Below are positions 872 through 42,303 of a DNA stretch of 42,303 bases, one piece after another. Source of the DNA: Chloroflexota bacterium (GTDB taxonomy: Bacteria; Chloroflexota; Limnocylindria; Limnocylindrales; Limnocylindraceae); contig JBEDBF010000001.1 in assembly GCA_041177405.1 (NCBI GenBank), positions 1 through 42,303 on the forward strand, in the 5' to 3' direction. Below the pieces are notes generated by a model. It saw only the letters and a program-made list of their open reading frames with translations, was not told the origin of the DNA and searched no databases. The number at the start of each line of letters is the position of its first letter. Position 1 is the stretch's first letter. A program made the position numbers and the translations under genes.

Positions 872-3693
<2,822 letters not shown>

Positions 3694-6520: not shown

Positions 6521-6536
6521 GGATCGGAGGACGGCG

Positions 6537-7601: not shown

Positions 7602-7603
7602 AC

Positions 7604-7837: not shown

Positions 7838-7846
7838 GGCTCGCTC

Positions 7847-10567: not shown

Positions 10568-10640
10568 CCCCTGCTACGATCGCGAACGTGAAGCAGCAAC
10601 ACCCCGTCGTCGCCTCCGTGCGACCGAGTGAGCGCCTCCG

Positions 10641-12511: not shown

Positions 12512-12538
12512 GCAGCACAACCGCGAAGGGGGCTGATC

Positions 12539-13450
12539 GTGAGTAGAGCGCAGAACGGTCGTCTGATTCGGCTAAGCATCTCAGCCGCGGTCAACGGCCT
12601 TTCCCGAAACAGGCTCGCCACAGTTGCGGCGACCATGACCATGACGCTGATGCTGCTCGTTCTCGCCTCGGTGCTGGTGATCCGTGCCGGACTTGATGCC
12701 GCCCTCAGCTATGCAGACTCGAAGGTGGAGGTGGTCGCCTACCTGAAGGTCGGCGCCTCCGAGGAGCGTGCGAACTCGCTTCGCAACGAGATCCTCAAGA
12801 TCGATGGGGTGAAGGAGGCTACCTACATTACCGCCGACGAGGCGCTCGCCGCCTTCCGTGAACGGCTGAAAGAGCGAGGTGAACCGGACCTCACGGGTGA
12901 GCTCGATCAGAATCCGCTCCCGGCCAGTTTTGAGATCGCCCTCAACAGCCCAGGTGAAACCGCGAAGGTGGCAGACGCGCTGAGTCGACTTCCCTCCGCC
13001 GCACTTTTTTCACGAATCGTTGACGGCCGCGCGGTCGCAGAGAGCCTTGCTGGCATCACCTCAGCGCTTCGCATCGCCGGTTTGATCGTGTTGATCGGTT
13101 TCTCACTCGCCGTCCTTGCCGTTGTTGTCAACGCCATTCGACTCGCGATCCTCGCGCGAAGCGATGAGATCGCGATCATGCGCCTTGTCGGCGCAACATC
13201 AACGTGGGTGCGCCTCCCCTTCATCATTGAAGGGTTGATCATTGGAGGCGCGGGCGCGCTGATCACGCTCTTCATCTTCGGCATCCTTGGCGCGGGAATC
13301 AGCACCATCATGCTGAACCTCTTCCGCGTCCTCCCTATTGAGACGTCTGGCATTCTTCTTGGGCAGGTTGCCGTCACCGTGCTCGTCGCCGGATTTGGGC
13401 TTGGCGCGCTCGGTGCACTACTCTCACTTCGTGGTCGTCTGAACTCGTAG
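12539..13450 (+). CDS. ftsX: Cell-division permease-like protein FtsX
   Basis: It follows ftsE. N-terminal TM helix, a periplasmic-type domain, then three C-terminal TM helices. GTG 12539 follows GAAGGGGG. Confidence 0.85.
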   Translation: MSRAQNGRLIRLSISAAVNGLSRNRLATVAATMTMTLMLLVLASVLVIRAGLDAALSYADSKVEVVAYLKVGASEERANSLRNEILKIDGVKEATYITADEALAAFRERLKERGEPDLTGELDQNPLPASFEIALNSPGETAKVADALSRLPSAALFSRIVDGRAVAESLAGITSALRIAGLIVLIGFSLAVLAVVVNAIRLAILARSDEIAIMRLVGATSTWVRLPFIIEGLIIGGAGALITLFIFGILGAGISTIMLNLFRVLPIETSGILLGQVAVTVLVAGFGLGALGALLSLRGRLNS

Positions 13451-13465
13451 GGCGCAGGAGGGCGT

Positions 13466-14707
13466 ATGCAACAACGTGAGGACTTAGGTGGTGCTGGTCG
13501 GCGGCCACTCGTCACACGAGTAGGGGCTCTCCTTCTCGCAGCCCTCCTCGCATTTGGCGCGTACACGCTCGGATATAACAGTGGCAGCACGGCAGCCAGC
13601 GGTACTGGTGCCGCTGGCGCAATCGACCTTTCACGATTCAACGAAGTGCTCGACCTTGTTGAATCACGGCATGTTGGCGACAAGACGGAAGAGGCACTCG
13701 TTGACGGTGCCATCAAGGGCCTCGTTGAGTCCCTCAACGATCCGTACTCGCAATATCTCACCGGCGAAGAGATGGATGCACTTGTTGAGGGGCTCTCTGG
13801 AAGCTTCGAGGGGATTGGTGCCGTCATCGAGAGTCGCGGGCCAGAAGGCGAAGCGTGCACGACGCTCGGGCCAGACTGTTACCTCTTGGTGGTCTCCCCG
13901 ATTGATGGTTCGCCAGCAAAGGCGGCGGGCGTTCAGAGCGGCGACCGCATCACCTTGGTTGACGGTGCCACCGTGGATGGAGAGACGTTAGACGAAGCGG
14001 TCCTACGAGTGCGCGGCGAGAAGGGGACGAGCGTCGTGATTACCATCGTTCGAGGCGACGCCGCACCGATCAACCTGACGATCGTCCGCGACGTCATCAC
14101 CGTTCCTGCAGTTGAACCAAAGACGCTTGAGACGTCAAGCGGTGCACCGGTGAGCTATCTGCGACTCGCTGAGTTCAGTGAGATTGCGGGTGATCAGTTT
14201 GATCAGGCGCTGCAAGAGGTGATTGATGCGGGAGTCAAGCGAATCATCTTGGACTTGCGAGATAACCCGGGCGGATACCTCTCTACCGCGTTGCAGATCG
14301 CAAGTGAGTTCATCCCTGATGGTGTGGTCTACATGGAGGAGACGAGCGACGGGAGGCGGACCGAAACCTCCGCGAGCGGCGGGGGTCTCGCAACCGATCC
14401 GTCCATCAAGCTCGTCGTGCTCATCAATAAAGGGAGTGCGTCTGCGAGCGAGATTTTGGCTGGCGCGTTGCGCGACCGCGGGCGCGCAACTCTTGTTGGA
14501 GAGACCACCTTTGGCAAGGGTGTGGTGCAGACCTTCATCGACCTTAAGGATGGGTCGGGCTTGAAGCTCACGATCGCAAAGTGGCTCACCCCAAACGGCA
14601 CGTGGGTAAACAAGGTGGGGCTCGCCCCGGATTACCCGGTCGCAACGCCCGCCACCCCTGGCGAGAGCGATCCTGCCCTAGAGAAGGCGTTGGAACTCCT
14701 GAAGTAG
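13466..14707 (+). CDS. ctpA: S41-family carboxyl-terminal processing protease (PDZ domain plus Ser/Lys dyad)
   Basis: N-terminal TM/signal anchor, GIGAVI, PDZ segment SPIDGSPAKAAGVQSGDRI, LDLRDNPGG, INKGSASASEILAGAL, TFGKG. Confidence 0.88.
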   Translation: MQQREDLGGAGRRPLVTRVGALLLAALLAFGAYTLGYNSGSTAASGTGAAGAIDLSRFNEVLDLVESRHVGDKTEEALVDGAIKGLVESLNDPYSQYLTGEEMDALVEGLSGSFEGIGAVIESRGPEGEACTTLGPDCYLLVVSPIDGSPAKAAGVQSGDRITLVDGATVDGETLDEAVLRVRGEKGTSVVITIVRGDAAPINLTIVRDVITVPAVEPKTLETSSGAPVSYLRLAEFSEIAGDQFDQALQEVIDAGVKRIILDLRDNPGGYLSTALQIASEFIPDGVVYMEETSDGRRTETSASGGGLATDPSIKLVVLINKGSASASEILAGALRDRGRATLVGETTFGKGVVQTFIDLKDGSGLKLTIAKWLTPNGTWVNKVGLAPDYPVATPATPGESDPALEKALELLK

Positions 14708-14869
14708 CGCGCCGTACGCTCAGTCGCGTCGCCCCTTGCGTCAGAGCGCGCCGAGCCGTATCGTCTACGGCAGACGGAAGGAGGTGGTGTGCAGTGTCAA
14801 TAGACAGTTGTACGACCGCCTCTCGTGAGGTCGGCGAATAACCGATCCCGAGAGCGGTAACGTTCTGAG

Positions 14870-14904
14870 AGGGCGCTGGCCGCAAGGTCAGCGCCCTTTC
14901 TATT
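14870..14904 (+). terminator. Intrinsic terminator (12-bp GC-rich stem, GCAA loop, T-rich tail)
   Basis: AGGGCGCTGGCC GCAA GGTCAGCGCCCT (one G-T wobble) followed by TTCTATT. It lies 160 nt after the ctpA stop and 43 nt before smpB. Confidence 0.7.
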
Positions 14905-14946
14905 CGCATCAGCCACGCTCCGCCCACCCGCGGAAAAGGAGGTCTC

Positions 14947-15435
14947 ATGGCTACGAAGAAGTCGGTCGTCGCTGCTGACGGTACGACGCTGTCTTCGAAC
15001 CGGAAGGCCACCCACGAGTACGAGATCCTCGATCGCTTTGAGGCGGGTGTGGTGCTCACGGGGACGGAGATCAAGTCGATTCGCGCGGGGAAGGCAGACA
15101 TCGGTGACGCCTACATTCGTCTTGACCAAGGCGAGGCGCGCATGATTGGCATGCACATTGCCGAGTGGCCCGGTGCTGCCAGCCAGCAGCACGAGCCGAA
15201 GCGGACGCGCCGCCTCCTCCTCCATAAGGAAGAGATCGTCTCGATCGGCACCAAAGTGAAGGTGAAGGGTCTCACGCTGATCCCGCTACGACTCTATTTG
15301 AGTCGCGGGCGATGCAAGGTGGAGATTGGCCTTGGGCGTGGAAAGAAAGAGTTCGACAAGCGCAAATCAATCGCTGACCGAGAAGGAAAACGTGAGGCTG
15401 AACGCGAACTCTCTGACTGGAAACGCGGGGGCTAG
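14947..15435 (+). CDS. smpB: SsrA-binding protein SmpB
   Basis: NRKATHEYEILDRFEAGVVLTGTEIKSIR, LLLHKEEI, basic C-terminal tail. SD AAAGGAGG upstream. The tmRNA gene follows. Confidence 0.93.
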   Translation: MATKKSVVAADGTTLSSNRKATHEYEILDRFEAGVVLTGTEIKSIRAGKADIGDAYIRLDQGEARMIGMHIAEWPGAASQQHEPKRTRRLLLHKEEIVSIGTKVKVKGLTLIPLRLYLSRGRCKVEIGLGRGKKEFDKRKSIADREGKREAERELSDWKRGG

Positions 15436-27801: not shown

Positions 27802-30800
27802 ATGAGCACTTCGCTGATCATCGCTTTGGCCGTCGCGCTGCGCATGATCATCGCATACGTGCTCCTGCCGGCAGACGCTGGATTCACAGCAGACCTAGAA
27901 GCATTTCGATTCTGGGCGGCCGACCTTGGCGCGAACGGCCCACTGGGCTCATATGAGCGCGGCTACTTTCTGGACTATCTCCCAGGCTATCTCTGGATTC
28001 TCTGGCCACTCGGCGCACTAAGCGGCGCGCTAACCGGATCCTTCGATCCAGGCGCACTGATCAAGCTTCCAGGGATTCTCGCTGACGGCTTGCTCATCCT
28101 CGTGACGGTTCGGTTGGCGAGCGAGCTTGGTGCATCAACGCGCGCGCAGCGCGTGGTGGCACTTCTGCTCGCGTTCACTCCAGTCGTCTGGCTGAACTCA
28201 GCGGTATGGGGACAAGTTGACGCCGTTGGAACGAGCGCCCTCATCGTTGCGGTGACCGAGCTGATCAAGGGGCGCACGCTCCGCGGTGCCGCTCTTGCAG
28301 CACTCGCCGCGGTGATCAAGCCGCAGTTCGGCATCCTGATTCCACTGATCGCCGTGATCGCCGTTGTGCGTGCGCGGCGCAGTGGCGACGCCTGGTCGCT
28401 CCCGCTGGTCGCGCTTACCGGGACGGCGGTCGTCTCAGTTATCGCACTGCCGTTCGGGCTTACCGTCATCGACGTGATTCAGCGGGTTGGGACGGCGGCG
28501 GCAACATATCCATACCTGAGCGTGAACGCGTGGAATCTCTGGGCACTCGCTGATAGCGGTGGGACAGGCATCATCCTGAACGGCGGCTGGGGGAGCGACA
28601 CGGTCCCGCTCTTTGGGTTCGGCCCACCGGCACTCTTTGTCGGCACACTGTTGCTCGTGGCGGCGATCGCCGTGGCAGGGTGGGCGGCGAGACACGACGA
28701 ACGCACCAGAACGGTCGCCGCACTCGCACTGATCGCGATCGCCTTCTTTCTTCTCCCAACCCGCGTGCACGAGCGCTACCTCTTCCCCGCCGTCCCTCTC
28801 ACCCTTGCGCTTGCGGCAGCGCACCCTCGCTGGCGAATCGTTGCGGCGCTCACCGCCCTCGTGCTGATCATCAACACATGGGGCGTGCTCACCCTTGAGT
28901 ACCTCCAAAGCCCAGGGATTCCAGATCTCGGCCCAATCACCGACGCGCTTCACAGCCCAACCGCGATCATCACCGCCGTTTGCGCAACCACCGTTGCATT
29001 TGCTGTCGCCGGCCATCAACTCCTGCAACTGCCGACGGGTGAATCAAGAGTGGTTCGACGAAGGGCAGCACCCGTTCGGGTGATTGACGAAACGAACAGT
29101 TCCAGCGCTGCACCACGGGCACGCCTCACTCGCGTGGACCTCTGGATGCTCGCCGTTATTGCGGTAACCGCACTCTCGCTGCGTGGATGGCGTGTGGGAG
29201 AGCCAACACGATTCCACTTTGATGAGGTCTACCATGTGCGCACAGCAACCGAGTTCATGCAGCACTGGCGATATGGCGAGCCGCATGCAATCTACGAATA
29301 CACACACCCGCACCTCGCAAAGTACGCGATTGCCGGCGGACTCGAGCTCTTCGGTGCACCACGTGTTGATGGTGGGGGTACGTACGGCGCACCGATCCTG
29401 GCCATTGCATCGCGTCAGGAAGGCGCACAGGGGGCGCCGCGCATCTGGGTTGCGACAGCTGCGGGGATCGATGTCATCAGCTCCGAAACCCGCGCAATCA
29501 TCGCTCGCATTGACGAGCCCGGCGTTCGTGCACTCAGCGTTGCGGGTGACGGATCACTCTGGGGTATCTCAGCGCGCGGAGAGGTGCTTCACGCGCCTGG
29601 CGACGCAGTCGAGGGAGCAGAGAACAACCCGCTCACACGATGGGACATCAGCGTGCCAACCATTCACACGGTGCGCGGTGCTGGTGACGTTGCGTTCGTA
29701 GCCACAACGAGTGAGGTGCTACGCGTAGAGCGCGGTGCGGTTACGGCGCGAGCCGACGTCGATGGTGTGCACGCCATCGAAACCGTACGTGTTGACGAGA
29801 CGAGCCACCTAATCGTCGCTGGAAGTACCGGACTCACGCTGCTGAAAGCGGATGACCTGAGTGGCGCGCAACGCACCGCCGTGACCGGCGGCGTGGTTGC
29901 CATTGGGGTGATTGACTGGTTTGACGAACCGCGCGTCTATGCGGCGGGGAGAGACGAGATCACCGCCTTCACGCTTCGATCAGACACAGAAGCCTCACGC
30001 GTGGCATCGATCAGTATCTCTGGAGCCTCAGCAATCATTGTCAACAACGCAACAAGAGTTGTGCACGCCGTGGCACCAACACGCGCAGCGAGTAGCGGCG
30101 CGGCGCTCTGGAGTATTGAGCCGAACGGAAACGCCTATTTTGCAGACACTGAACTTCGCAACCCAGAGTCGCAGAACCCCGAGCCACTCATGAGCAGTGC
30201 GGTGGTGGGAGCCGTGATCGATGGCTCGGCGGAACTGCCAGACGGTGGACGCGGAGAGTTGATCACCGCTTGGCCCAACGGCGAGATGGTGCAGGTTGCT
30301 GTGGGCGACCTCTCTTCGGGGTGGCGCTGGCCAGGGGTAATCGCGGGAGCCGCCGCTGCGGCACTCCTCGCACTCCTTGCGCGACTACTAACGGAGCGCC
30401 GCGATGTTGCGGCGCTCACCGGTCTCCTCGCGCTGCTTGATGGCGCGGGGTTCGTACAGAGCCGCATCGGGATGAACGACGCCTTCCTGCTCGCGGCGCT
30501 TCTCGCCGCCGCATGTGCGTTTGTTGCGTGGGCTCAAGGTCGAGCGCGCGGAGCCGCAGGGGGAAGCCTCCTCCTCCTTGCCGCCGGTTCCGCGCTCGGC
30601 TTGGCACTCGCAAGCAAGTGGGTGGCGCTCTACGGGATCGGCGCACTCGGGCTGATCTGGCTCGCACGCAGCGCGTGGGGGCGAGCCCTCGCCGTTGTGG
30701 GCCTTATCGGAATCGGCGCGCTCCTCCTCCCCTCCGCACTCTCCGTTCCCGCCGACGGGGGACGCCTCCCCAATCTTCCCTTCCTCGCGGTTGTGACCCT

Positions 30801-31965
30801 CGTCACCGCCGTCGCCGTCGTGGTTACCCGCCGAGCGCGAGACGACAGTCGTGCCTTATTCGATCTGCAGCGTGTGAGTGATGCGGTCGCGTCCGGCGCA
30901 TCAGCACTCCTGGTCGGCGCAACACTTATTGCACTCCCGCTTGCGGTGTATCTCATCAGTTATCTCCCGTGGGCAGCGCTAGGCAATCAAATTGTTGAAG
31001 GGTGGCCGCCTGGCAACGACGGGAGAACGCTCGCCGACCTCACCACCTCCATGTACCAGTACCACGACACGCTTCGCGTCGCGCACGCCGCAAGCTCGCC
31101 GTGGTGGGCGTGGCCGTTTGACCTGAAGCCGGTCTGGTTCTTCCAGGAGAGCTTTGCGGCAATCGGCGGATGGAGCGGTGCAATCTACAACGGAGGAAAC
31201 GTGGCTTCGCGCGTCCTCGGCCTCGCCGCTGGCGCATGGCTTGTTCGCCAAGCCTGGACGCAGAAGAGCTGGGGCCTCGCAAGCATCGCGGTGCTCTTCT
31301 TTGCACTCTGGCTACCATGGGCACGCGTAGATCGCGCGGCATTTCAGTACCACTACTTCCCGTCGTCACAGATTGCGTTGATCGCGCTTGCACTCCTCCT
31401 TGCAGATCTTCGAAACGGAGCGACGCGTGCCGTTCGCATGGCACAACTTGGATTCGCCGCACTCATTCTGGCCGCACCACTTCTCTGGGCGACAACCCCG
31501 CTTCTATGCGCAGCCGCTGGAGTTCTTGACGTTTACCCTGAGAGCCACGTCTGTCTCTCTTCTGGGCTTGCAACACCAGGCCCGGTCGTTGGTGCGCTGC
31601 TCTTGATCCCCGCCGGATATGCGGCCTGGTCGCTACGCCATATCAGCGATCCGCGACGCCTCTTCCGCTGGTTGATCGCCACAATCGGACTCGTTGCGCT
31701 GATCTGGTATCCGAACTGGTCAGCACTCCCCTTGCCAACCGGAGTACACAACGCGTACCAGGGCCTTCTCCCAACGTGGACGTGGTCGTTCCAGTTCGGC
31801 GTGACACTCGAGAAGCCAGTTGACGTCCCGCTCGTGAGTGGAGCAACGTTTCTCTTTGCCGCGGCTCTCGCAGCAGTTGCGCTCCTTACGTATGCGTTAC
31901 TCGAGTACGCGCGGCGACGAGAACTCCACGAGGATCGCGCGAAGCGGAACTCCATCGGTCGCTAG
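27802..31965 (+). CDS. Giant polytopic GT-C glycosyltransferase: N-terminal GT-C module fused to a PMT (GT39)-like protein O-mannosyltransferase module with a large loop insertion
   Basis: The first ~430 aa form a multi-TM module with DLEAFRFWA ... FLDYLPGY (an ALG6/8- or DUF2029-like look). The PMT loop-1 signature RFHFDEVYH ... EYTHPHLAKY sits at 29209-29325. Further motifs are GFVQSRIGMNDAF and C-terminal SSPWWAWPFDLKPVWFF, plus many TM helices. Confidence 0.8.
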   Translation: MSTSLIIALAVALRMIIAYVLLPADAGFTADLEAFRFWAADLGANGPLGSYERGYFLDYLPGYLWILWPLGALSGALTGSFDPGALIKLPGILADGLLILVTVRLASELGASTRAQRVVALLLAFTPVVWLNSAVWGQVDAVGTSALIVAVTELIKGRTLRGAALAALAAVIKPQFGILIPLIAVIAVVRARRSGDAWSLPLVALTGTAVVSVIALPFGLTVIDVIQRVGTAAATYPYLSVNAWNLWALADSGGTGIILNGGWGSDTVPLFGFGPPALFVGTLLLVAAIAVAGWAARHDERTRTVAALALIAIAFFLLPTRVHERYLFPAVPLTLALAAAHPRWRIVAALTALVLIINTWGVLTLEYLQSPGIPDLGPITDALHSPTAIITAVCATTVAFAVAGHQLLQLPTGESRVVRRRAAPVRVIDETNSSSAAPRARLTRVDLWMLAVIAVTALSLRGWRVGEPTRFHFDEVYHVRTATEFMQHWRYGEPHAIYEYTHPHLAKYAIAGGLELFGAPRVDGGGTYGAPILAIASRQEGAQGAPRIWVATAAGIDVISSETRAIIARIDEPGVRALSVAGDGSLWGISARGEVLHAPGDAVEGAENNPLTRWDISVPTIHTVRGAGDVAFVATTSEVLRVERGAVTARADVDGVHAIETVRVDETSHLIVAGSTGLTLLKADDLSGAQRTAVTGGVVAIGVIDWFDEPRVYAAGRDEITAFTLRSDTEASRVASISISGASAIIVNNATRVVHAVAPTRAASSGAALWSIEPNGNAYFADTELRNPESQNPEPLMSSAVVGAVIDGSAELPDGGRGELITAWPNGEMVQVAVGDLSSGWRWPGVIAGAAAAALLALLARLLTERRDVAALTGLLALLDGAGFVQSRIGMNDAFLLAALLAAACAFVAWAQGRARGAAGGSLLLLAAGSALGLALASKWVALYGIGALGLIWLARSAWGRALAVVGLIGIGALLLPSALSVPADGGRLPNLPFLAVVTLVTAVAVVVTRRARDDSRALFDLQRVSDAVASGASALLVGATLIALPLAVYLISYLPWAALGNQIVEGWPPGNDGRTLADLTTSMYQYHDTLRVAHAASSPWWAWPFDLKPVWFFQESFAAIGGWSGAIYNGGNVASRVLGLAAGAWLVRQAWTQKSWGLASIAVLFFALWLPWARVDRAAFQYHYFPSSQIALIALALLLADLRNGATRAVRMAQLGFAALILAAPLLWATTPLLCAAAGVLDVYPESHVCLSSGLATPGPVVGALLLIPAGYAAWSLRHISDPRRLFRWLIATIGLVALIWYPNWSALPLPTGVHNAYQGLLPTWTWSFQFGVTLEKPVDVPLVSGATFLFAAALAAVALLTYALLEYARRRELHEDRAKRNSIGR

Positions 31966-34153: not shown

Positions 34154-35332
34154 ATGGAAGAATCGCTCGCCGCGCGTATCGTTGCGGAGATCCGCGAGCG
34201 AGGACCAATCAGTTTTGCGCGATTCATGGAGCGCGCACTCACTGAGCCAGGTATCGGCTACTACGTTGGCCCGCATGCACGCGCAGGGCGAGAGGGTGAC
34301 TTCATTACCGCACCAGAGATGCACGGGATTCTCGGTTCAGCACTTGCACGGCTGTTTACCCAAACATGGGAGCGGCTCGATCGACCAACACCGTTTCGCT
34401 ATACCGAGTACGGCGCCGGATCTGGCACACTCGTCTGCGCCATCATCGATCAGCTCATCAGAGATACATCACCACTCCTTGAGGCGCTTGAGATCCAACT
34501 GATTGAAGTCAATGAACACCGCGTAGAAGAGTTGAAAGCTGCGGTGAGCGCACGTGCGCTCCGTCAGCCGCTGAACATCGTGCACGTTGATGCACCCCCG
34601 GTGGCGGGAGTTGTTGTGGCGAACGAATATCTCGACGCACTCCCGTTTCACATCTATGTGGGACGAGCAGCGACCGCCTGCGGCGTTGCAGAGCGTCGTG
34701 TTGGAGTCAACGAGCGCGGCGTACTTGATTGGGTGGAAGTGCCGCTGGACGAATCCGAAGCTGAGCGAGTGCGTCAGCGGTTTGGGGCACCACTCGCTGA
34801 AGGGCAACGCGCAGAGGCCTGCTTTGCTGCAGACAGATGGCCGTCCGAACTGGCGCAACGAATCAGTCATGGGCTTGTGGTGGTGATTGACTACGGCCGC
34901 GAAGGGGTTGAACTGCGTGACGCTGCGAGCCGCGCGGCCGGGACGGCACTTGCCTATCAGGGGCATCGGGCCACGGACGACCTCTTGGGGGACCCAGGGG
35001 GGCGCGACCTGACCGCCCACGTTGACTTGACCGCCCTGCGAGTCGCCGCCACCGCGGCGGGGCTCACCCCGATCGCCTCCACCAGCCAGGCGGCACTCCT
35101 CGCAGGGGCGGGCCTTGATGACGAAATCGAGCGGATCCGCCGAGGGCCAGAGGCGACCCTTGAGGGGGCGATCGCCCTTCGCGCGGCGCTTGCACGGCTG
35201 ATGAACCCCCGGAGCATGGGTGGCTTTGCCGTTGAGCTCTTCGCCCTCGGCTCGGCTGAGCACATTTCACGCCTCTCAGATGCGAGAAATCCGCTCCCTG
35301 GAGCGGCGGCTCCGATCCGCCCCCTCGTCTAG
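34154..35332 (+). CDS. Class I SAM-dependent methyltransferase of the DUF185 / MidA / NDUFAF7 family
   Basis: ISFARFMERALTEPGIGYY, GDFITAPEMHGILGSALA, EYGAGSGTL, ANEYLDALP, DLTAHVDLTAL match the family pattern. Confidence 0.8.
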   Translation: MEESLAARIVAEIRERGPISFARFMERALTEPGIGYYVGPHARAGREGDFITAPEMHGILGSALARLFTQTWERLDRPTPFRYTEYGAGSGTLVCAIIDQLIRDTSPLLEALEIQLIEVNEHRVEELKAAVSARALRQPLNIVHVDAPPVAGVVVANEYLDALPFHIYVGRAATACGVAERRVGVNERGVLDWVEVPLDESEAERVRQRFGAPLAEGQRAEACFAADRWPSELAQRISHGLVVVIDYGREGVELRDAASRAAGTALAYQGHRATDDLLGDPGGRDLTAHVDLTALRVAATAAGLTPIASTSQAALLAGAGLDDEIERIRRGPEATLEGAIALRAALARLMNPRSMGGFAVELFALGSAEHISRLSDARNPLPGAAAPIRPLV

Positions 35333-35404: not shown

Positions 35405-35761
35405 ATGAACGGACTCTGGTACGTCCTCGGCTTCGCCGGCGCGGGTGTCTCCTTCGTCTTTTTGACGATCGGGATCGCCTGGCTGATCTCCCACCGTACG
35501 CGCGGAAGCCGAGGGAAGCAGGTGCCATACGAGTCGGGCATCGACACGTACGGCGACACCCACGGCCGCTTCGGCCTCTCCTTCTATCTCTACGCACTTC
35601 TCTTCGTTGCGTTCGATGTTGAGATCGTCTTTATTTACATCTGGGCGCTCAACTTCCAAACGCTCCTCATCGAAGGCCTCGTCTCCATGGCGGTCTTTAT
35701 CGGCGTCTTGCTGATCGGGCTCGCATATGCGTGGCGAAAAGGGGTGCTCGCATGGCGATGA
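35405..35761 (+). CDS. nuoA: NADH-quinone oxidoreductase subunit A
   Basis: 3-TM protein with YESGID ... [19 protein letters not shown]. Confidence 0.9.
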
Positions 35762-36429
35762 CACGCGATCCAAAGAAGGCGTTGCAGGCTCCGATCGTCA
35801 CACCGAACACGCTCTGGACCACCGACGACCCGCGTGCATACGGTGGTCAGCCGCTCGCCGAACATCCGAACCTTGAGCTCGCGCGCTATGACGCCACTGG
35901 CGAAGGTCGCGTGGATGATGCGCGTTGGAGCGGAGCGCTTGGCGCGATCCCAACAAAGGCAGACATTGTGCTCGACCTAATCCGAGCAAACAGCCTCTGG
36001 CCACTTCTCTCCGGACTCGCATGTTGCGCGATCGAGATGATGTCAACCGCGACGCCAAAGAACGATATTGATCGCTGGGGGATGTTCCCCTTCCGCGCGT
36101 CGCCGCGACAGGCAGACGTGTTGATCGTCGCGGGAACACTGACAACAAAAATGGCGGAACCGCTCATTCGACTATGGGAGCAGATGCCAGAACCGAAGTG
36201 GGTTGTTGCAATGGGAGACTGCACCTGTTCAGGCGGTCGCTATAAGCGCAGCTACTCCGTGGTGCAAGGGATTGACCGCGTGATGCCCGTTGATGTCTAC
36301 ATCCCAGGATGTCCGCCACGACCAGAGGGCCTGATCTACGGAATGATGAAACTGCAGCAGCTGATTAAGGATCGTCGTGGACATTGGCCGGAGCGCGCAA
36401 TCGGCCCAACCGTTCCGGACGGAATCTAA
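35752..36429 (+). CDS. nuoB: NADH-quinone oxidoreductase subunit B (all four N2 cluster Cys present) with a long N-terminal extension
   Basis: [45 protein letters not shown]. The start is ATG 35752 or 35758, overlapping the nuoA stop. Confidence 0.9.
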
Positions 36430-36980
36430 TGGATCGCGCGCTCGCCACTGCACTCCAGGAGCGCTTCGGCAACACGCTTCTCGCCCCCGTTCGTCAACGA
36501 TTTGACGAGACGGAGATTCGCGTCAGCATTGCTGATGCAATCCCAACGCTGCGCGCGCTACATGATGAACCTGCATTCGCATATGAAATGCTGATTGACC
36601 TTTGTGGGGTAGATACCGGTGAAGAGATGCAGGTCGTGTATCACCTTTCGTCGTCTCAAAGTGGTGACTGGCTTCGCGTGATCGTCCCCGGTATTGACCG
36701 AAGTGCGCCGCGCGTGAACTCGCTCGTCTCACTCTGGCCAGGCGCCGAATGGATGGAGCGCGAGGCCTACGACATGTTCGGCATCATCTTCGAAGGGAAT
36801 CGCGACCTTCGTCGCATCTACATGCCAGATGATTATGTGAGCCACCCGCTCCGAAAAGATTTCTATCTTGCAGACGACGCGTCGCGGTCACCGGCCGCTG
36901 GCGTTCGCAACATGGAGCGCGTGGGAACGCCCGTTGATGCCACCCGCAGCACGGCACTACGCAAGAGTCCAGGGGCATAA
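36429..36980 (+). CDS. nuoC: NADH-quinone oxidoreductase subunit C
   Basis: LIDLCGVD, SLWPGAEWMEREAYDMFGIIFEGN, DLRRI, HPLRKDF. ATG overlaps the nuoB TAA (TAATG). Confidence 0.9.
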   Translation: MDRALATALQERFGNTLLAPVRQRFDETEIRVSIADAIPTLRALHDEPAFAYEMLIDLCGVDTGEEMQVVYHLSSSQSGDWLRVIVPGIDRSAPRVNSLVSLWPGAEWMEREAYDMFGIIFEGNRDLRRIYMPDDYVSHPLRKDFYLADDASRSPAAGVRNMERVGTPVDATRSTALRKSPGA

Positions 36981-36982
36981 GC

Positions 36983-38197
36983 GTGACCACACCCCTGACG
37001 AAACCATCACTTGACGATCCAAGGATTGCGATCCCCGCTGCCTCCGAGTGGTACGAGCCCGCACCCACGGCGCAGACGGAGCGACAGGCGGAGTTCCTGA
37101 ACCTTCGCGACGGCGAGATGTTCATCAATATGGGGCCGCAACACCCGTCCACACACGGGGTGCTTCGCATCGTCGTCAAGGTGAACGGCGAGCAGGTTGT
37201 TGACCTTGACCCCGTGCTCGGATACCTCCACCGCGGCGTAGAGAAGCTCTGCGAGAACGCCGACTACCACCAGGCGATCTGCTACACCGACCCACTCGAA
37301 TACGTGGCCTCGCTCTTCTGCGAAGCCGCACCCGTGGCCGCCTTCGAGAAGCTGATGGATGTCGACGTCCCGCGCCGCGCGCAGTACATCCGCGTCCTCA
37401 CCATGGAGCTGAATCGCATCGCCAGTCACACCCTCTTCCAGGGGTGGATGGCGCTCGATCTTGGTGGGATCACGCCGATCCTCTGGTCGTTCATTGAACG
37501 CGATGAGATCGTGGACATGCTCGCGGCTCTCACGGGGCAGAAACTGCTCTACAACTACTACCGCATTGGTGGCGTGAACGGCGACCTCAATCACGAATTC
37601 ATGAGCCGACTCGGCAACTGGATGAGCCGCGCCGCCGCGCAGATCGATTCAAACCTTGGGTTGATGAACGAGAACGAAATCTTCGTTCGACGCACGCGCG
37701 GTCTCGGCACGCTTGATGCGGCTACTGCGCTGCGCATGGGTGTCACTGGACCAAACCTGCGCGCCACCGGCGTGCCGTTTGATCTCCGCCGCGATCACCC
37801 ATATCTGGTGTATCCAGAGCTTGAGTTCAACGTGCCAACACGCCAAGAGGGTGACTCGCTTGCGCGCTACATGGTTCGGATTGACGAGATTCGCGAGTCC
37901 ATTCGCATCATTGATCAGGTGCTGCACGAAATGCCAGATGGTCCAGTGATGGCGAAACTCCCGCGCCTGATCCGACCACGACCAGGCCGCGCATTCGGCG
38001 CGGTAGAAGGGCCGCGTGGCGCGTACGGCGTGTACGCAATCTCTGATGGCACCGATCAACCGTTCCGGATGCGCATTCACGACCCATCGTTCGTTCACTT
38101 GCAACTGGTGGGTCCGCTCACGCGCGGCAATTTGATTGCAGACACCATGGCGGTGATGGCAAGCCTTGATCCTGTCATGGGTGGGGTGGACAAGTGA
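36983..38197 (+). CDS. nuoD: NADH-quinone oxidoreductase subunit D
   Basis: NMGPQHPSTHGVLR, LGYLHRGVEKL, ELNRIASH, EGPRGAYGVY, HDPSF, DPVMGGVDK. Confidence 0.93.
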   Translation: MTTPLTKPSLDDPRIAIPAASEWYEPAPTAQTERQAEFLNLRDGEMFINMGPQHPSTHGVLRIVVKVNGEQVVDLDPVLGYLHRGVEKLCENADYHQAICYTDPLEYVASLFCEAAPVAAFEKLMDVDVPRRAQYIRVLTMELNRIASHTLFQGWMALDLGGITPILWSFIERDEIVDMLAALTGQKLLYNYYRIGGVNGDLNHEFMSRLGNWMSRAAAQIDSNLGLMNENEIFVRRTRGLGTLDAATALRMGVTGPNLRATGVPFDLRRDHPYLVYPELEFNVPTRQEGDSLARYMVRIDEIRESIRIIDQVLHEMPDGPVMAKLPRLIRPRPGRAFGAVEGPRGAYGVYAISDGTDQPFRMRIHDPSFVHLQLVGPLTRGNLIADTMAVMASLDPVMGGVDK

Positions 38198-39531
38198 GCG
38201 GCGCACAGATGGCATGGTCACGAATGACGCCAGGCGGACGCGCACTCGCCGTGCTGCTGCCACTTCTCTCCGTTGGGGGCGCGGCGATCACCGCCCTGCT
38301 CGTTGTAGCGGGACCGTTCATTGGCGCAACCATTGGGGCAAACCTGCCAATCGTGCGCTTCCTCGCCGCGTCGGTGATCACCTTCTTGATCACCGTCCCT
38401 GTTGCATTCCTTTTGATTTACATGGAGATGAAGATCATTGCGTTGATGAATCTGCGCATCGGCCCAGATCGCATCGGTCCCGGCGGTGCCGTCATGAGTG
38501 TGGTGCACGGGCTCAAGGTGCTGATGAAGGAGGACTACACGCCGCCGAGCGTTGATGTTCCTGTCTTCACGCTCGCACCCGTCGTTGTCTATCTGGCGAG
38601 CTTCATGACGATCATGGTCATTCCGTTTGCGCCAGACCTCACGAGTATCGGACTCGAGTTCGGCCTCCTCTACTTCTTCGCTATCGGCGGACTCGGCGTA
38701 GTGGGCTTGATGATGGCGGGCTGGTCCTCGTTCAACAAGTATTCGCTTTTGGGCGGCATTCGAGCCGCAGCGCAGGCGATCAGCTATGAGATCCCCCTGA
38801 CACTCTCCGTCGTAGGAATCATCATCTTGACCGGCACACTCTCGCTCCCAAAGATTGTGGAGGCGCAGAGCGGTTCCCTGCTTGACTGGTTCATCTTCCG
38901 TCAGCCACTTGCGGCGATCATCTTCTTCATTGCAATCACCGCAGAGGCGAACCGCACGCCGTTTGATAACACCGAAGCCGATCAGGAGATCGTTGCCGGA
39001 TTCGCAACGGAGTACTCCGGCATGCGCTTCGGCTTCTTCTTCTTTGCGGAGTACGTCAACGTCTTCATCGTCTCAGCACTCTTCTCCGCCGTCTTCCTTG
39101 GCGGATCCAATGCACCGCTTGTTCTCCCCTTCAACCCTGAGATCAATGTGGACCTGAGCGGGCTCGGCCTCCTCCTCCCGATCGCGGCGGGGATCGCTCC
39201 GCTGCTTGGGACGTTGGCGATCGGCCTCCCCATCTACGCGATTAGCGCGCGCATCAAGGCCTGGCAGGCACTCCTCGCCGGCTTCCTCATCTTCGGCGCG
39301 CTTTCGACAGCGGCCATCGGCTTCTGGGCCTGGGCGATGCTTCCACCCGTCGCGGACCTTGTCTGGTTCCTGCTGAAGACGTTCACCCTGATCTTCATCT
39401 TCGTCTGGATGCGCGCAACGTTGCCGCGCGCGCGCATCGACCAGCTGATGGGCTTCGCCTGGAAGTGGCTCCTCCCCGCCTCACTGCTCAACCTATTTGT
39501 CACGGCTGCCGCCGTGTTGCTGACGGCATAA
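38194..39531 (+). CDS. nuoH: NADH-quinone oxidoreductase subunit H, about 100 aa longer than usual
   Basis: EMKIIALMNLRIGPDRIGPGG, LKVLMKEDYTP, AEANRTPFD, EADQEIVAGFATEYSGMRFGFFFFAEY, WMRATLPRARIDQLM. GTG 38194 overlaps the nuoD stop. Confidence 0.9.
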   Translation: MSGAQMAWSRMTPGGRALAVLLPLLSVGGAAITALLVVAGPFIGATIGANLPIVRFLAASVITFLITVPVAFLLIYMEMKIIALMNLRIGPDRIGPGGAVMSVVHGLKVLMKEDYTPPSVDVPVFTLAPVVVYLASFMTIMVIPFAPDLTSIGLEFGLLYFFAIGGLGVVGLMMAGWSSFNKYSLLGGIRAAAQAISYEIPLTLSVVGIIILTGTLSLPKIVEAQSGSLLDWFIFRQPLAAIIFFIAITAEANRTPFDNTEADQEIVAGFATEYSGMRFGFFFFAEYVNVFIVSALFSAVFLGGSNAPLVLPFNPEINVDLSGLGLLLPIAAGIAPLLGTLAIGLPIYAISARIKAWQALLAGFLIFGALSTAAIGFWAWAMLPPVADLVWFLLKTFTLIFIFVWMRATLPRARIDQLMGFAWKWLLPASLLNLFVTAAAVLLTA

Positions 39532-39541: not shown

Positions 39542-40363
39542 ATGGCACGAATCCCAGGCTCAGGCATCGTCCGCGGAATGGCCCTGACGCTCACGCGCTT
39601 CTTCCAGCCGAAGAAGACGGTGATGTACCCCGAAGTGAAGCCAGACATTCCGCCGCGCAACCGTGGTCGCTTGGAACTGGTGACCGACGAGCGTGGCACG
39701 CTGAAGTGCGAAACCTGTTTCCAGTGCGCGCAGGCGTGCCCAATTGAGTGCATTGACATGGGCGGAACAGATACCAAGGGAAGGTACGCCGTCCACTGGG
39801 GGCCGGCGGAGCAGTACGCCGAGCGCCGCGAAGAGTCGGCGATGCGTCGCTCCGGACGAACCGTCTCCGACGCTGCGGCAGCACAAGAGAGCAGTGTTGA
39901 CCTTCGACCCGTTGAAGCGGCGTTGGAACGCGTTGACTACGACCCGCATCACATGTTGCAGATCCTTGAGTCAGTACAGCGCGCGTACGGATATCTGCCG
40001 GTTGATGCATTGAAGCGCATCAGTCGCGCCACTGGCGCCTGGTACGCCATGGTCTATGGCACCGCAACCTTCTATAAACACCTCACGTTTGAGCCGGGAC
40101 GCAATCGCACGATCGCGGTCTGCCGTTGTGCAAACTGCTTGGTTGCCGGCGCAGGGCGCGTGATCAACACGCTCTCGTTCGAATTTGGAACAGAGTTCGG
40201 ACAGGCGATCCCGTGGAGCAACCTGCGGCTCGAAGCCCTCCCAACACACCTTCCTGACGCCCCATCGCCGCTCGTGGTGATTGACGGCGAACCACAGCGC
40301 GAGCTCTCAAGTCGCAATGCCGAGTCGTGGGCCGCCGCGCTTGCGGGGAGGTACGCCGCGTGA
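39542..40363 (+). CDS. nuoI: Fusion protein: N-terminal half of NuoI (single 4Fe-4S motif) joined to a NuoE-like thioredoxin-fold domain with an incomplete 2Fe-2S ligand set
   Basis: NuoI part: KKTVMYPE, RNRGRLEL, CETCFQCAQACPIEC (39707-39751). NuoE-like part: LQILESVQRAYGYLP, VYGTATFY, IAVCRCANC (40121-40138). SD AGGAGGG precedes ATG 39542. Confidence 0.8.
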   Translation: MARIPGSGIVRGMALTLTRFFQPKKTVMYPEVKPDIPPRNRGRLELVTDERGTLKCETCFQCAQACPIECIDMGGTDTKGRYAVHWGPAEQYAERREESAMRRSGRTVSDAAAAQESSVDLRPVEAALERVDYDPHHMLQILESVQRAYGYLPVDALKRISRATGAWYAMVYGTATFYKHLTFEPGRNRTIAVCRCANCLVAGAGRVINTLSFEFGTEFGQAIPWSNLRLEALPTHLPDAPSPLVVIDGEPQRELSSRNAESWAAALAGRYAA

Positions 40364-41622
40364 AGCAACTGAGCGCACCAAAGGGATGGTCACAGATCCT
40401 CATGACGCCACCGGCAACGCCGTGGAGCGCGCTGCGCGCTGCGCTCGCCGCTGGTGGCGCGGCAACCGCGCAGACACTCATTGATGCCGGCCTGCGCGGA
40501 CGCGGCGGTGGGGGTTTCTTGACCGGTGAGAAGTGGCGTGCAGCTGCGCAGAGCGACGCGTCGCCGAAATACGCGGTGGCAAACGCATACGAGTCAGACC
40601 CAGCCGTCTTCACGAACCGTCTCCTTCTTGAAAAGAATGCACTCGGAGTCATTGAGGGCCTCGCGATCGCCGCACTCAGTGTTGGCGCGCGTGAAGCGAT
40701 GATTGGCGTGCGCGCGGAGTACAGCGACGCAATCCGTTCGCTTGAAGTGACCATCACCACCGCAGAGCGCGAAGGCGTTCTCGGGGCCAACGTGCTCGGA
40801 AGCGGTCGCGAGCTCACCGTGCGCGTCATCCCACTTCAAGGCTCAAGCATGATCGGTGAAGAGACGGTGCTGCTCAAGGCGCTTGCAGGAAAACGCGGTC
40901 AGCCAGAGCAGACGCCGCCGTATCCATCGGAAGTTGGCTATCTCGGCAAGCCGACCGTGGTGAACAACGTGGCAACACTCGCCGCCGTCTCTTGGATCCT
41001 TGCCAACGGCGCCGCTGCATTCAAGCAGATTGGCGACCCAGCGCAGCCTGGAACCATGCTCGTTCAGGTGAGCGGCTCGATCACTAACTCCGGCGTCCTC
41101 GAAGTTCCGACAGGAACCCCACTCGCGGAGATCCTCGCAGTGGCGGGAGGCCCCGCACGCGGAGCCACGATCAAGGCGCTTCTTGTTGGCGGCCCATCGG
41201 GCGGATTTGTTCCTGCGCAGCTGTTGGCAAGTACGCCGTATAGCGGCGCCGGACTCGCCGCGGTTGGCGCGCACATTGGTTCGGGCGCGCTGCTTGCCCT
41301 CGACGGGAGCGCATCAATTCCTGAGCTCGCCGCCATGTTGACGCGCTGGTGTGCCGACGAAGCCTGCGGAAAAACAATTCCATGCCGCATCGGCACCCGT
41401 CGCCTTGCTGAGATTGGGCAACGCTTTGTCGACGGTCTCGCTGGCCCGCAAGACGGCGAGCGACTCCAGGCGCTCGCGGCAGATGTTGCAGATAGCGCGC
41501 TCTGCGCGCATGAGCGGCTCACGCCAAGCCCACTCCTGACGGGGATGCGATACTTCAAACACGAGTTTTATCCGGCCAACGTCGCGCAGCCAAGCGGCGC
41601 AGTAGCAGGACGGAGTACGTAG
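40360..41622 (+). CDS. NuoF (51-kDa subunit)-like protein with divergent cofactor motifs
   Basis: GLRGRGGGGFLTGEKW, IGEETVLLKALAGKRGQP, PPYPSEVGYLGKPTVVNNVAT, EACGKTIPCRIG. GTG 40360 forms a GTGA overlap with the upstream stop. Confidence 0.8.
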   Translation: MKQLSAPKGWSQILMTPPATPWSALRAALAAGGAATAQTLIDAGLRGRGGGGFLTGEKWRAAAQSDASPKYAVANAYESDPAVFTNRLLLEKNALGVIEGLAIAALSVGAREAMIGVRAEYSDAIRSLEVTITTAEREGVLGANVLGSGRELTVRVIPLQGSSMIGEETVLLKALAGKRGQPEQTPPYPSEVGYLGKPTVVNNVATLAAVSWILANGAAAFKQIGDPAQPGTMLVQVSGSITNSGVLEVPTGTPLAEILAVAGGPARGATIKALLVGGPSGGFVPAQLLASTPYSGAGLAAVGAHIGSGALLALDGSASIPELAAMLTRWCADEACGKTIPCRIGTRRLAEIGQRFVDGLAGPQDGERLQALAADVADSALCAHERLTPSPLLTGMRYFKHEFYPANVAQPSGAVAGRST

Positions 41623-42303
41623 ATGGCAGGCCTCATGGAGCGACCAACGAGTGGTGTGACACCAGTTGATGCCACCGCGGTGCAGACCACCTCAGAGAGC
41701 CAAGCGGTTGAGCAGATGCTCTCCACGCGCAGCCCACAACGCCCGCAGCGCACCCCAACCTTCTATGTAGAGATTGACGGGAGGCAGCTCGAGGCGTTTG
41801 AGGGACAGACAATCCTCGAAGTCTGCCGCGCAAATGGCATTGAAGTCCCAACGCTCTGCTACGACCCGAAACTTCCTGGATTCGGCGCATGCCGCATGTG
41901 TGTGGTCGACGTTGACGGGTGTGACTCACCGCAGATCAGCTGTTCGGCAAAGGCGGAACCCGCAGCGGTCATTGCCACACAGACCGATCGGCTGCGTGAG
42001 ATTCGTCGCACCAACCTGGAGTTGATCTTTAGCGACCACAACGCGTACTGTCTGCCGCCGTGCCAAAACAAGTGCCCGAGCCACATCGACATTCCAGGTT
42101 TCTTGAAGGCGAACGCCGAGTCGCAGTTCCGCGAGTCGGCGCGCATCTTCAAGCGCACCATCCCGTTCCCAAGCATCCTCGGTCGCGTCTGCCCAGCACC
42201 TTGTGAAGACCACTGCCGTCGTGACGAAGTTGACGAAGCGATCGCGATCCGCGACAGCCACCGCTACGCAGGCGACCAGGTGCTCAAGTCAATGTGGGAC
42301 GAG
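41623..42303 (+). CDS. Partial CDS (3-prime end outside the window): NuoG-type N-terminal 2Fe-2S domain fused to a GltD (glutamate synthase small subunit)-like Fe-S/NAD(P)H oxidoreductase domain
   Basis: Not in the ORF track because it has no stop. I translated it by hand from ATG 41623 (TAGATG with the nuoF-like stop): FYVEIDGRQLEAFEGQTILEVC ... LCYDPKLPGFGACRMCVVDVDGCDSPQISC (C-x10-C-x2-C-x13-C), then CLPPCQNKCPSHIDIPGFLKANAESQFRESARIFKRTIPFPSILGRVCPAPCEDHCRR ... IAIRDSHRYAGD. The second part parallels the GltD N-terminal Fe-S region. The frame stays open to the last base. Confidence 0.8.
   Translation, partial: MAGLMERPTSGVTPVDATAVQTTSESQAVEQMLSTRSPQRPQRTPTFYVEIDGRQLEAFEGQTILEVCRANGIEVPTLCYDPKLPGFGACRMCVVDVDGCDSPQISCSAKAEPAAVIATQTDRLREIRRTNLELIFSDHNAYCLPPCQNKCPSHIDIPGFLKANAESQFRESARIFKRTIPFPSILGRVCPAPCEDHCRRDEVDEAIAIRDSHRYAGDQVLKSMWDE

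Follow-up and report, generated by a model that had tools for sequence, protein, structure and literature searches.

The window analysed here, a 42,303-nucleotide stretch of DNA from a freshwater Chloroflexota bacterium of the Limnocylindria (GenBank assembly GCA_041177405.1, contig JBEDBF010000001.1), ends inside a nuo operon in which the position of nuoG is taken by a gene of another kind, designated G*. Complex I is regarded as a NADH-specific proton pump with 14 fixed core subunits, the known exceptions being enzymes in which the input module has been swapped for one that uses ferredoxin or F420H2. All of the operon genes in the window are on the forward strand. The first is nuoA (35405..35761), followed by nuoB (35947..36429), nuoC (36429..36980), nuoD (36983..38197) and nuoH (38194..39531), which was identified by Pfam and encodes a protein of 445 amino acids (aa). 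The Q-module is intact, with canonical N2 ligand motifs in NuoB, including PGCPP, and canonical quinone-site motifs in NuoD, GPQHPSTHG and LEY. Next come three genes that encode a 273-aa fusion protein, designated I_N::E (39542..40363), composed of the N-terminal half of NuoI and a NuoE/HydC-like thioredoxin fold, a NuoF/StnB-like flavoprotein core of 420 aa as called (40360..41622, with an alternative GTG start at 40327) and G*, of which the window carries only the 5' part (41623..42303). An earlier annotation, made from the letters of the window alone, had placed a 2Fe-2S domain fused to a GltD-like domain at the NuoG position and had described the trio as chained to Q-module and membrane-arm genes. 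Both descriptions proved correct, with nuoABCDH before the trio and nuoJKLMN after it.

Translation and profile scanning of the segment from 41623 to 42303 gave an open frame of 227 of the 849 G* codons, identical to the peptide quoted in the first-pass annotation. The ATG directly follows the TAG stop of the NuoF-like gene, and the start codon is sound because M1, R7 and P8 are unchanged among homologues. A variable leader (residues 1-48) is followed by a Fer2_4 [2Fe-2S] domain (residues 49-121, 41767..41985; E 1.6e-17 in the window fragment) that is equivalent to N1b of NuoG and A1 of NfnA. Its ligands, C79, C90, C93 and C107, form the motif C79-x10-C90-x2-C93-x13-C107 (41857-41943) and were unchanged in 34 sequences, soluble Stn/Nfn types among them. 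Residues 133-139 read ELIFSDH, CLPPCQNKCPSHIDIPGFL begins at residue 143 (nucleotide 42049), and FPSILGRVCPAPCEDHC and then IAIRDSHRY follow. The sequence H139-x3-C143-x3-C147-x3-C151-P (residues 139-152, motif at 42037..42078) is common to StnC/NfnA and marks the splice point of the GltD-like module into a NuoG/HydA-like scaffold. Overlapping it is a Fer4_20 domain (Pfam, residues 143-222, 42049..42288; E 2.2e-18), the counterpart of the region that holds two [4Fe-4S] clusters, A6 and A7, beside the FAD in NfnA. It includes C190, C194 and C198, while His213 (42259-42261) stands where A7 has a conserved Lys ligand.

As had been noted, the frame runs off the window, with a predicted end about 1.87 kb further on. 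A second contig, L001, matched the last 904 nucleotides of the window at 903 of the 904 positions and could therefore stand in for the missing sequence. On L001, G* encodes 849 aa, and nuoJ, K, L, M and N start 3 nucleotides after it, which settles what follows the gene. The full protein matched Fer2_4 (E 9e-17), Fer4_20 (E 3.9e-17) and Pyr_redox_2 (E 3e-32), the last over residues 244-557, a 314-residue segment of FAD and NAD(P)H Rossmann domains; this is the flavin-binding part of GltD that the first-pass annotation had proposed to look for. The remainder of the protein had not been visible in the window. After the GltD insertion come a C-x2-C-x-C-x5-C motif (residues 625-636) and, in residues 686-751, a return of the scaffold in the form of a NuoG/HydA-type two-cluster ferredoxin domain with motif B (C693...C703) and motif C (C736...C746-P). 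Residues 756-802, which are NuoI-like, contain a fourth motif, D (C768...C778-P), followed by GFDFELAH, and about 70 aa extend beyond this motif to the C-terminus. None of the Cys ligands is missing, whether of A1, A6/A7, the 625-636 cluster or motifs B, C and D, and the NADPH-type motifs GGGxTxMD (GGGYTSMD) and VYRR..MPA (VYRRDMKDMPA) are kept.

The N-terminal 2Fe-2S domain and ELIFSDH look NuoG-like, and it had been considered at the outset that G* might be an ordinary NuoG in which the similarity to GltD was an artefact of Cys-rich motifs. This possibility is refuted by the 314-residue flavin/NAD(P) domain and by the score of the protein against the NuoG family TIGR01973, 80.7 bits with a cut-off of 470.05, in an alignment confined to residues 49-183. 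The fit of the GltD-like part to NfnI-L and GltD, given below, and the lack of a molybdopterin-like domain argue in the same direction; a Pfam scan of the full protein gave no match to Molybdopterin or Molydop_binding, as the earlier annotation had anticipated. The companion statement, that the His-ligated N5 site of NuoG is missing, was not established. The N5 family NADH-G_4Fe-4S_3 aligned only over positions 1-17 at 20.2 bits, below the cut-off of 27, but H139 is unchanged and common to StnC/NfnA, and C625-x2-C628-x-C630-x5-C636-DL comes after the 480-aa GltD insertion.

G* is also distinct from GltD itself. The score against gltD_gamma_fam was 308.7 bits with a cut-off of 482.95, the GltD-like unit is a domain within the 849-aa protein rather than a stand-alone subunit of about 470 aa, and neither gltB nor nfnS was found in the operon. 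A longer alignment was obtained with PRK12814 (NF009454, "putative NADPH-dependent glutamate synthase small subunit"), in which G* residues 49-705 matched profile positions 6-630 of 657 at 538.3 bits; with a cut-off of 916, G* is not a member of this family. By this match, the Fer2+GltD fusion is an already catalogued architecture. An AlphaFold2 model of the full protein, made from an input alignment of 39 sequences from two phyla, was confident for the 2Fe-2S and GltD-like flavin domains only. In a Foldseek search with this model, 9bov_A, 8oh5_C and 9n5u_A ranked first, followed by NfnI-L and GltD. Superposition of the GltD-like part on 5jca_L, 6s6s_E and 2vdc_G gave target-normalised TM-scores of 0.79-0.81 and root mean square deviations of 2.3-3.6 Å. 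For the NfnI-L and GltD hits the deviation was 2.3-2.6 Å. The GltD-like part of G* is thus real and complete.

The three structures that ranked first belong to the electron-bifurcating StnABC/NfnABC transhydrogenases (8OH5, 9BOV, 9N5U), which have the same three-protein set in the same order as the locus described here. G* residues 49-779 are collinear with residues 6-700 of NfnA from C. saccharolyticus (9bov_A, E 1.8e-165) and align in one piece with residues 6-701 of S. ovata StnC (8oh5_C, E 2.6e-143); NfnA of T. sibiricus (9n5u_A) was the third solved one-piece match. The closest solved relatives of all three trio proteins are Stn/Nfn-Bfu subunits, in agreement with the Stn-type trio named in the first-pass annotation. 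StnC/NfnA and G* have in common the 2Fe-2S domain, the FAD/NADPH domain, the C-x2-C-x-C-x5-C motif and the two-cluster ferredoxin domain, with the cluster cysteines conserved. However, the solved StnC/NfnA proteins are 953-1178 aa long, the alignment with the 849-aa G* ends at about residue 780, and the rest of G* is NuoI-like. Where StnC/NfnA have a C-terminal domain resembling formate dehydrogenase (Fdh) and NuoG, with cluster A5, G* has the C-terminal half of NuoI. The A7 ligand is His in G* and Lys in NfnABC, in all of which it is conserved according to the structure papers. The partner subunits also differ. The N- and C-terminal cluster domains of the Stn/Nfn B subunit are both absent here and one B1 Cys is lost, while the C subunit, which has a full ligand set in Stn/Nfn, has lost two cluster ligands and has the NuoI N-half attached. 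Finally, the Stn/Nfn enzymes are soluble and ferredoxin-linked, whereas the genes described here are nested in a nuo operon; because the trio is embedded in this way, the complex would be membrane-bound and quinone-linked.

A search of 1.84 billion representative sequences returned, as the next relatives of G*, StnC/NfnA-type proteins of 1,000-1,400 aa with about 40% identity over residues 49-780 only. Six representatives of about 810-850 aa (P0134, P0150, P0171, P0182, P0205 and P0206) were considered as G*-type proteins and rejected, as all of them end in NN(I/V)DHCARL. Such ends fall at the selenocysteine/Cys active-site position of formate dehydrogenases, and these StnC-like proteins look like GltD-containing FdhA cut by gene callers at a UGA selenocysteine codon. 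The only true distant G* member in the search was P0141 (816 aa), which has the same NuoI-like end as G*.

The NuoI sequence is divided between the first and last proteins of the trio. Residues 9-84 of I_N::E are the N-terminal half, with the motif C56-x2-C59-x2-C62-x3-C66-P (39707-39742). Positions 1-65 of the 121 in the NuoI profile TIGR01971 matched I_N::E residues 12-77 (48.7 bits), and positions 71-117 matched G* residues 756-802 (50.2 bits). Each half alone therefore reaches about 50 bits against a cut-off of 113, and the F-like gene lies between them. The first-pass annotation had reported the fusion of the first trio member to NuoI; the fusion is confirmed, but only this N-terminal part of NuoI, not the whole, is present there. 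When the halves were joined in silico, they gave a single end-to-end alignment to solved NuoI/TYKY structures of 79.8 bits (E 1.6e-21), roughly the sum of the 39.5 and 48.1 bits obtained separately. Outside the Cys motifs, the N-half also matches at YPE..RGR and the C-half at FELA. C56, C59, C62, C66 and P67 of I_N::E are invariant in both of the phyla in which the operon was found, as are C768, C771, C774, C778 and P779 in G*. No other nuoI was found among the genes of the operon.

An alternative assignment, in which motifs C and D of G* alone make up a complete NuoI-like domain and the I_N motif is an orphan, was rejected on two grounds: motifs B and C, both invariant, are the homologues of the two-cluster domain in solved StnC/NfnA, and the NuoI-specific N-terminal region is present on I_N::E only. 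The eight cysteines of motifs B and C are invariant and common to StnC/NfnA, where they bind two clusters, so that motif D would need the I_N::E motif as its partner. By these alignments NuoI is in two parts, separated by the E-like, F-like and StnC-like genes, and the arrangement can be written as nuoI(5' half)::E-like, F-like, StnC-like(minus Fdh domain)::nuoI(3' half). A single insertion into nuoI of a cassette ordered E-F-G would give exactly this layout. Reassembly of NuoI from two polypeptides is geometrically plausible by analogy with the NfnABC structure, in which the N-terminal domain of NfnC contacts the Fdh-like domain of the A subunit; given this packing, the two fusion points would have been neighbours in the ancestral complex.

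The strand that comes before the second motif in a normal NuoI is present twice here, once in each half. The repeated strand reads GRYAVHW in I_N::E (residues ~83-124, window 39788-39913) and LTKYEVD in G* (residues ~755-765, L001:14344-14376), and SKYLLP and QSYDLD in the homologues from Thermoleophilia. It may be an overlap left over from the insertion or a pair of strands that zips the halves together. I_N::E also has a conserved charged linker, ERREESA.RRSGR.

The other two components of the trio also differ from their relatives. The F-like protein has only the Pfam domains Complex1_51K, SLBB and NADH_4Fe-4S. It scores about 290 bits against StnB (8oh5_B), NfnB and HydB, to which it is closer than to true NuoF/Nqo1, with 208-225 bits. 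The alignment is limited to the StnB core, residues 146-512 of 584; BfuB has a 2Fe-2S domain at its N-terminus and a 2x[4Fe-4S] domain at its C-terminus, and the F-like protein has neither. The length was 383-474 aa in 79 of the 79 Limnocylindria loci measured, and none came near 630 aa. The FMN loop, GEET and GGPSGG are mostly conserved. In the N3/B1 motif, C-G-K-(T/S)-I-P-C, the second Cys is replaced by Thr or Ser in 80 of 80 sequences, and an invariant His is found two residues past the fourth N3/B1 Cys. The E-like part of I_N::E (residues 125-260, 39914-40321), which is preceded by the conserved linker, is closest to HydC and NfnC among solved structures. The second Cys pair has become Thr and Asp, and C-x-C-x2-C and a nearby His are conserved instead. 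These non-canonical ligand sets may represent clusters with three Cys and one His, or clusters that have been lost.

Schut et al. (2022, PMC9304861) defined the Bfu enzymes by a BfuB that has FMN, additional clusters or Zn sites (B2-B5) and, at the C-terminus, a domain that binds ferredoxin, and the structure papers describe B1-FMN-C1 as the minimal bifurcation site. The subunits of the window organism have neither the cluster-rich BfuB nor the four-Cys C1 of BfuC. As they lack both the extra-cluster domains and an intact B1-FMN-C1 set, the Limnocylindria enzyme should not bifurcate.

The gene order nuoA-B-C-D-H-[I_N::E]-F-[G*::I_C]-J-K-L-M-N was found in 86 of 86 Limnocylindria loci, to the reach of each contig, 63 of the loci being complete. 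The 273-aa I_N::E sequence is present, identical, on many public contigs, and one contig assigned to Candidatus Limnocylindrus sp. (L007) encodes a G* that is 100% identical to the query. More than 120 clusters with at least 73% identity belong to the G* family, under the labels Candidatus Limnocylindrales, Chloroflexota or Candidatus Aquidulcis, and species-representative genomes contain at least 547 relatives, the best 80 of which are all from Chloroflexota. An assembly artefact is ruled out, because the arrangement recurs in more than 80 independent assemblies, including contigs longer than 1 Mb. The cluster ligands and all Cys motifs of G* and I_N::E are invariant across Limnocylindria, and with a median identity of 75% G* is among the best-conserved subunits (NuoB 90%, NuoD 76%, F-like 53%).

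The first-pass annotation had allowed that a terminator and a promoter might separate G* from the nuo genes. A scan of the operon gave one promoter-like and eight terminator-like matches, at or below the number expected from shuffled sequence, and none at the F/G* and G*/nuoJ junctions; moreover, the operon genes abut or overlap. A separate transcription unit for the trio is unsupported, given that there is no excess of such matches.

A second large lineage with an Stn-type operon of split nuoI, the P0141 family, is labelled Thermoleophilia/Actinobacteria (Actinomycetota) and was found on contigs of metagenome-assembled genomes (L087:7324-12475; L088; L089). There, I_N is fused to a canonical four-Cys NuoE and G* again carries the C-half of NuoI. 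The B subunit, of 633-638 aa, has an N-terminal thioredoxin-like domain (2Fe-2S or Zn), a canonical FMN site with CGKCVPC and a C-terminal 2x[4Fe-4S] domain, and by its domain content is a full BfuB. The Thermoleophilia operon might consequently encode a candidate bifurcating, NADPH-linked complex I. Divergent tatA/tatC genes lie upstream of it. In three members of the family, P0141, P0273 and P0276, which form a subclade of the Thermoleophilia G* proteins, GDGFAA.EA and LSPCAR replace GGGxTxMD and YRR; no Fe-S ligand has been lost, and the C-half of NuoI is still present.

The nuo-embedded proteins of the two phyla formed one clade among the soluble Stn/Nfn-type proteins in 200 of 200 neighbour-joining bootstraps. 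At the A7 ligand position, His was found in 12 of 12 nuo-embedded proteins and Lys in 22 of 22 soluble relatives. On this comparison, the His is a shared derived change of the nuo-embedded clade, and the Limnocylindria and Thermoleophilia proteins have a single origin.

The reading that we favour, with reasonable though not high confidence, is that G* is the NuoG-position subunit of a variant respiratory complex I in Candidatus Limnocylindrus. Its input module, set within nuoI of an 11-subunit-type operon, would derive from a soluble Stn/Nfn-Bfu transhydrogenase, and in Limnocylindria the enzyme would act as a non-bifurcating NAD(P)H:quinone oxidoreductase. From homology we infer the physical assembly of the complex, the electron route, NADPH as a substrate and the direction of flow. 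In this scheme the proton pump probably takes electrons from NADPH, which would be oxidised by the FAD of the GltD-like domain, while the FMN of the F-like subunit would probably oxidise NADH. Electrons from the FAD would pass through A7, A6 and A3 to the Y-junction cluster A2, which those from the FMN would reach through B1 and A1. They would leave by the A2-A4 branch. In soluble Nfn/Stn, the A2-A4(-A5) arm is described as a dead-end side branch into the Fdh-like domain. In G*, the C-half of NuoI replaces that domain about 20 residues after motif C, and for this reason the arm would feed the two-piece NuoI. Electrons would then enter N6a/N6b of NuoI and continue through N2 in NuoB to quinone, powering proton pumping by NuoH, J, K, L, M and N. 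The ferredoxin-reducing, bifurcation-specific parts are gone in Limnocylindria.

Several observations weigh against this scheme. The AlphaFold2 model has a predicted local distance difference test (pLDDT) score of only 22-35 over residues 628-849 and is uninformative on the geometry of the NuoI half. Oxidation of NADH at the F-like subunit is uncertain, as an invariant Tyr replaces the Asp of NADE and the second N3 Cys is lost; the F-like protein is also the least conserved subunit. The E-like part has only two of the four canonical 2Fe-2S ligands. The replaced motifs of the P0141/P0273/P0276 subclade suggest that NADPH turnover was lost there, and since the NADPH motif is degenerate in these Thermoleophilia proteins, NADPH turnover would not be essential to the design everywhere. 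All of the sequences, moreover, come from metagenome-assembled genomes or metagenomes.

The degenerate subclade, in which the second Rossmann and YRR motifs were lost and the architecture is whole, is also an argument for a NADH-only complex I, in which the F-like FMN would be the sole entry point and the GltD-like domain, having ceased to turn over NAD(P)H, a structural relic, a wire or a regulatory site. The mostly conserved FMN loop, GEET and GGPSGG of the F-like protein would agree with this. However, the FAD/NADPH motifs and A6/A7 ligands are invariant in Limnocylindria, G* is far better conserved than the supposed sole entry subunit, and it is the latter that lacks one B1/N3 Cys and the FMN-site Asp, all of which makes the proposal quite unlikely. 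A different objection concerns direction. The enzyme could run in reverse or as a transhydrogenase, using the proton motive force and quinol, or NADH, to make NADPH at the GltD-like FAD, so that its role would be NADPH supply. The parent Stn/Nfn enzymes are reversible, make NADPH physiologically and show NADPH:NAD+ activity, complex I is generally reversible, and the wire from FAD to FMN is kept. Limnocylindria and Thermoleophilia, on the other hand, are generally described as aerobic heterotrophs, for which reverse flow would be costly, and the sequence gives no sign of direction. We regard reverse operation as unlikely, although it deserves to be kept in mind.

It is very improbable that the operon encodes two enzymes, a soluble Stn-like oxidoreductase and an 11-subunit complex I-like enzyme with another donor such as ferredoxin. 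Stn/Nfn trios elsewhere are soluble, and Chloroflexi and Actinobacteria commonly have operons for 11 subunits that include no N-module, but here an intact nuoI is absent from the operon, and its two halves, each invariant in two phyla, are covalently joined to the first and the last trio protein. The Fdh-like domain, to which tetramerisation and stability of soluble Stn have been ascribed, is missing from G*, and the trio is nested between nuoH and nuoJ, with genes that overlap or abut. The descent of the module from Bfu enzymes, the full BfuB and canonical C subunit of the Thermoleophilia version and the membrane-bound Bfu complexes predicted by Schut et al. (PMC9304861) would be compatible with a bifurcating or confurcating "Nuo-Bfu" complex I, with a flavobicluster site at which NADH, NADPH, ferredoxin and quinone are coupled. 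For the window organism we give this scarcely any credence, as the B subunit is short, at 383-474 aa in 79 Limnocylindria loci, without the ferredoxin-binding domain, the C1 ligands are incomplete and B1 is short of one Cys in what is the minimal site.

Compared with the canonical 14-subunit complex I (T. thermophilus Nqo1-14, E. coli Nuo), the membrane-arm and Q-module genes are the same, the 2Fe-2S and ferredoxin-like domains of G* are homologous to those of NuoG N1b and N4, and the F-like flavoprotein and E-like thioredoxin-like folds are those of NuoF and NuoE. The differences are that 1) the E, F and G genes lie between nuoD and nuoH in the canonical operon and between the nuoI halves here, 2) NuoI is one polypeptide in the canonical enzyme and two here, 3) the N3 and N1a ligand sets are altered and 4) G* has a NADPH/FAD domain in place of the molybdopterin-like domain of NuoG.

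Three kinds of variant described previously are related to this arrangement. The "Nuo-Bfu" operons predicted in Geobacter, Deferribacteres, Planctomycetes and Nitrospirae (Schut et al. 2022, PMC9304861) resemble it in having a Bfu-type ABC module instead of NuoEFG midway through a nuo operon, and the Thermoleophilia relatives have a full BfuB and BfuC. However, those operons, from other phyla, have a NuoG-like BfuA without a GltD/NfnL domain, an intact separate NuoI within a 14-subunit A-N arrangement and a cluster-rich B subunit, and neither a split NuoI nor a NADPH site was described for them. In the "mbx-like" operons of Thermotoga and proteobacteria, a GltD-related flavoprotein replaces NuoI (Degli Esposti 2015, PMC4758237), so that there, too, a membrane module related to complex I has a GltD-type NAD(P)H flavoprotein attached where NuoI would be. 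These operons are derived from Mbx/Mrp hydrogenases, are without NuoE/F-like partners, and the flavoprotein was proposed to substitute for NuoI, unlike the locus described here, which keeps both NuoI halves and in which the flavoprotein is part of a StnC-type chain. The 11-subunit enzymes (cyanobacterial NDH-1 with ferredoxin, archaeal Fpo with FpoF and F420H2) have an A-B-C-D-H-I-J-K-L-M-N core with a lineage-specific input at NuoI, and an NDUFAF7 homologue is associated with 11-subunit operons, as it is here; in contrast, the locus described here has as its input a large Fe-S/flavin module from a bifurcating enzyme, which is covalently tethered and would oxidise NAD(P)H. A StnC/NfnA-type NADPH module in complex I is built from known parts and follows the known modular exchange of N-modules.

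In the open-access papers and bioRxiv preprints searched, and in the Schut supplement, no GltD-containing NuoG substitute, split NuoI or Chloroflexota/Actinomycetota Stn-Nuo hybrid was described. Spero et al. (2015) remarked that many Chloroflexi have 13 of the 14 subunits, "missing only NuoG", which the split NuoI and G* may explain. Public annotations of the trio read "FAD-dependent oxidoreductase", "formate dehydrogenase major subunit" and "NuoE/HndA"; with such names, nuoG and nuoI will count as absent in metabolic reconstructions, and complex I may be rated incomplete there.

We put forward tentatively, as a possibility that falls a little short of an expectation, the joint proposal that the operon represents an unrecognised and abundant class of complex I, found in the Limnocylindria of lakes and soils and in soil Thermoleophilia, in which a stnA-stnB-stnC-type cassette inserted in nuoI would have left a NuoI of two polypeptides and would supply the first dedicated NADPH site. 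The proposal includes energy-conserving respiration of NADPH and the conversion of a "dead-end" Fe-S branch into the feed line of a proton pump. The Thermoleophilia form, with its complete bifurcating core, could then be a single proton-pumping machine in which NADH, NADPH, ferredoxin and quinone are coupled, and the class would be a living example of the independent acquisition of an N-module by an 11-subunit ancestor. If this is true, a built-in NADPH/FAD site would allow either energy-conserving oxidation of NADPH or its formation driven by the proton motive force, and models of redox balance would change for two groups that are very abundant and mostly uncultured. It would also illustrate modular evolution clearly, with a three-gene soluble enzyme inserted into the gene of a core subunit, a two-cluster ferredoxin fold divided over two polypeptides and new use made of a Fe-S branch, vestigial in the soluble enzyme.

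Directly upstream of nuoA lies a gene for a methyltransferase of the NDUFAF7/MidA family (34154..35332, forward strand; Methyltransf_28, E 4.6e-44). It was found beside nuoA in 71 of the 71 Limnocylindria loci that include nuoA, and not in the Thermoleophilia loci, and is likely an accessory or assembly gene for complex I. In mitochondria, the NDUFAF7/MidA family serves in complex I assembly and methylates the homologue of NuoD. An association of the methyltransferase with an 11-subunit complex I was described in a 2021 preprint for Ca. Actinomarina.

Some further features of the operon concern individual subunits. The longest open reading frame of nuoB begins at a GTG at 35731, which would add a 72-aa N-terminal extension overlapping the end of nuoA, and the gene calls differ among contigs (160 aa and 223 aa). 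In NuoH, the match to the 298-position Pfam profile extends from residue 61 to residue 438 and so includes about 80 inserted aa; the Thermoleophilia NuoH is 371-372 aa long.

Elsewhere in the window, positions 23-15435 contain a block of housekeeping genes of the kind usually found close to an origin (parA, parB, gyrB, gyrA, prs, secA, prfB, ftsX, smpB and the gene for an S41 protease). Within it, the RF2-like reading frame (10545-11772, PCRF + RF-1) begins at profile position 14, a start consistent with the usual programmed +1 frameshift of prfB. A very large membrane glycosyltransferase of the PMT family (dolichyl-phosphate-mannose-type), 1387 aa long, is encoded on the forward strand at 27802-31965.

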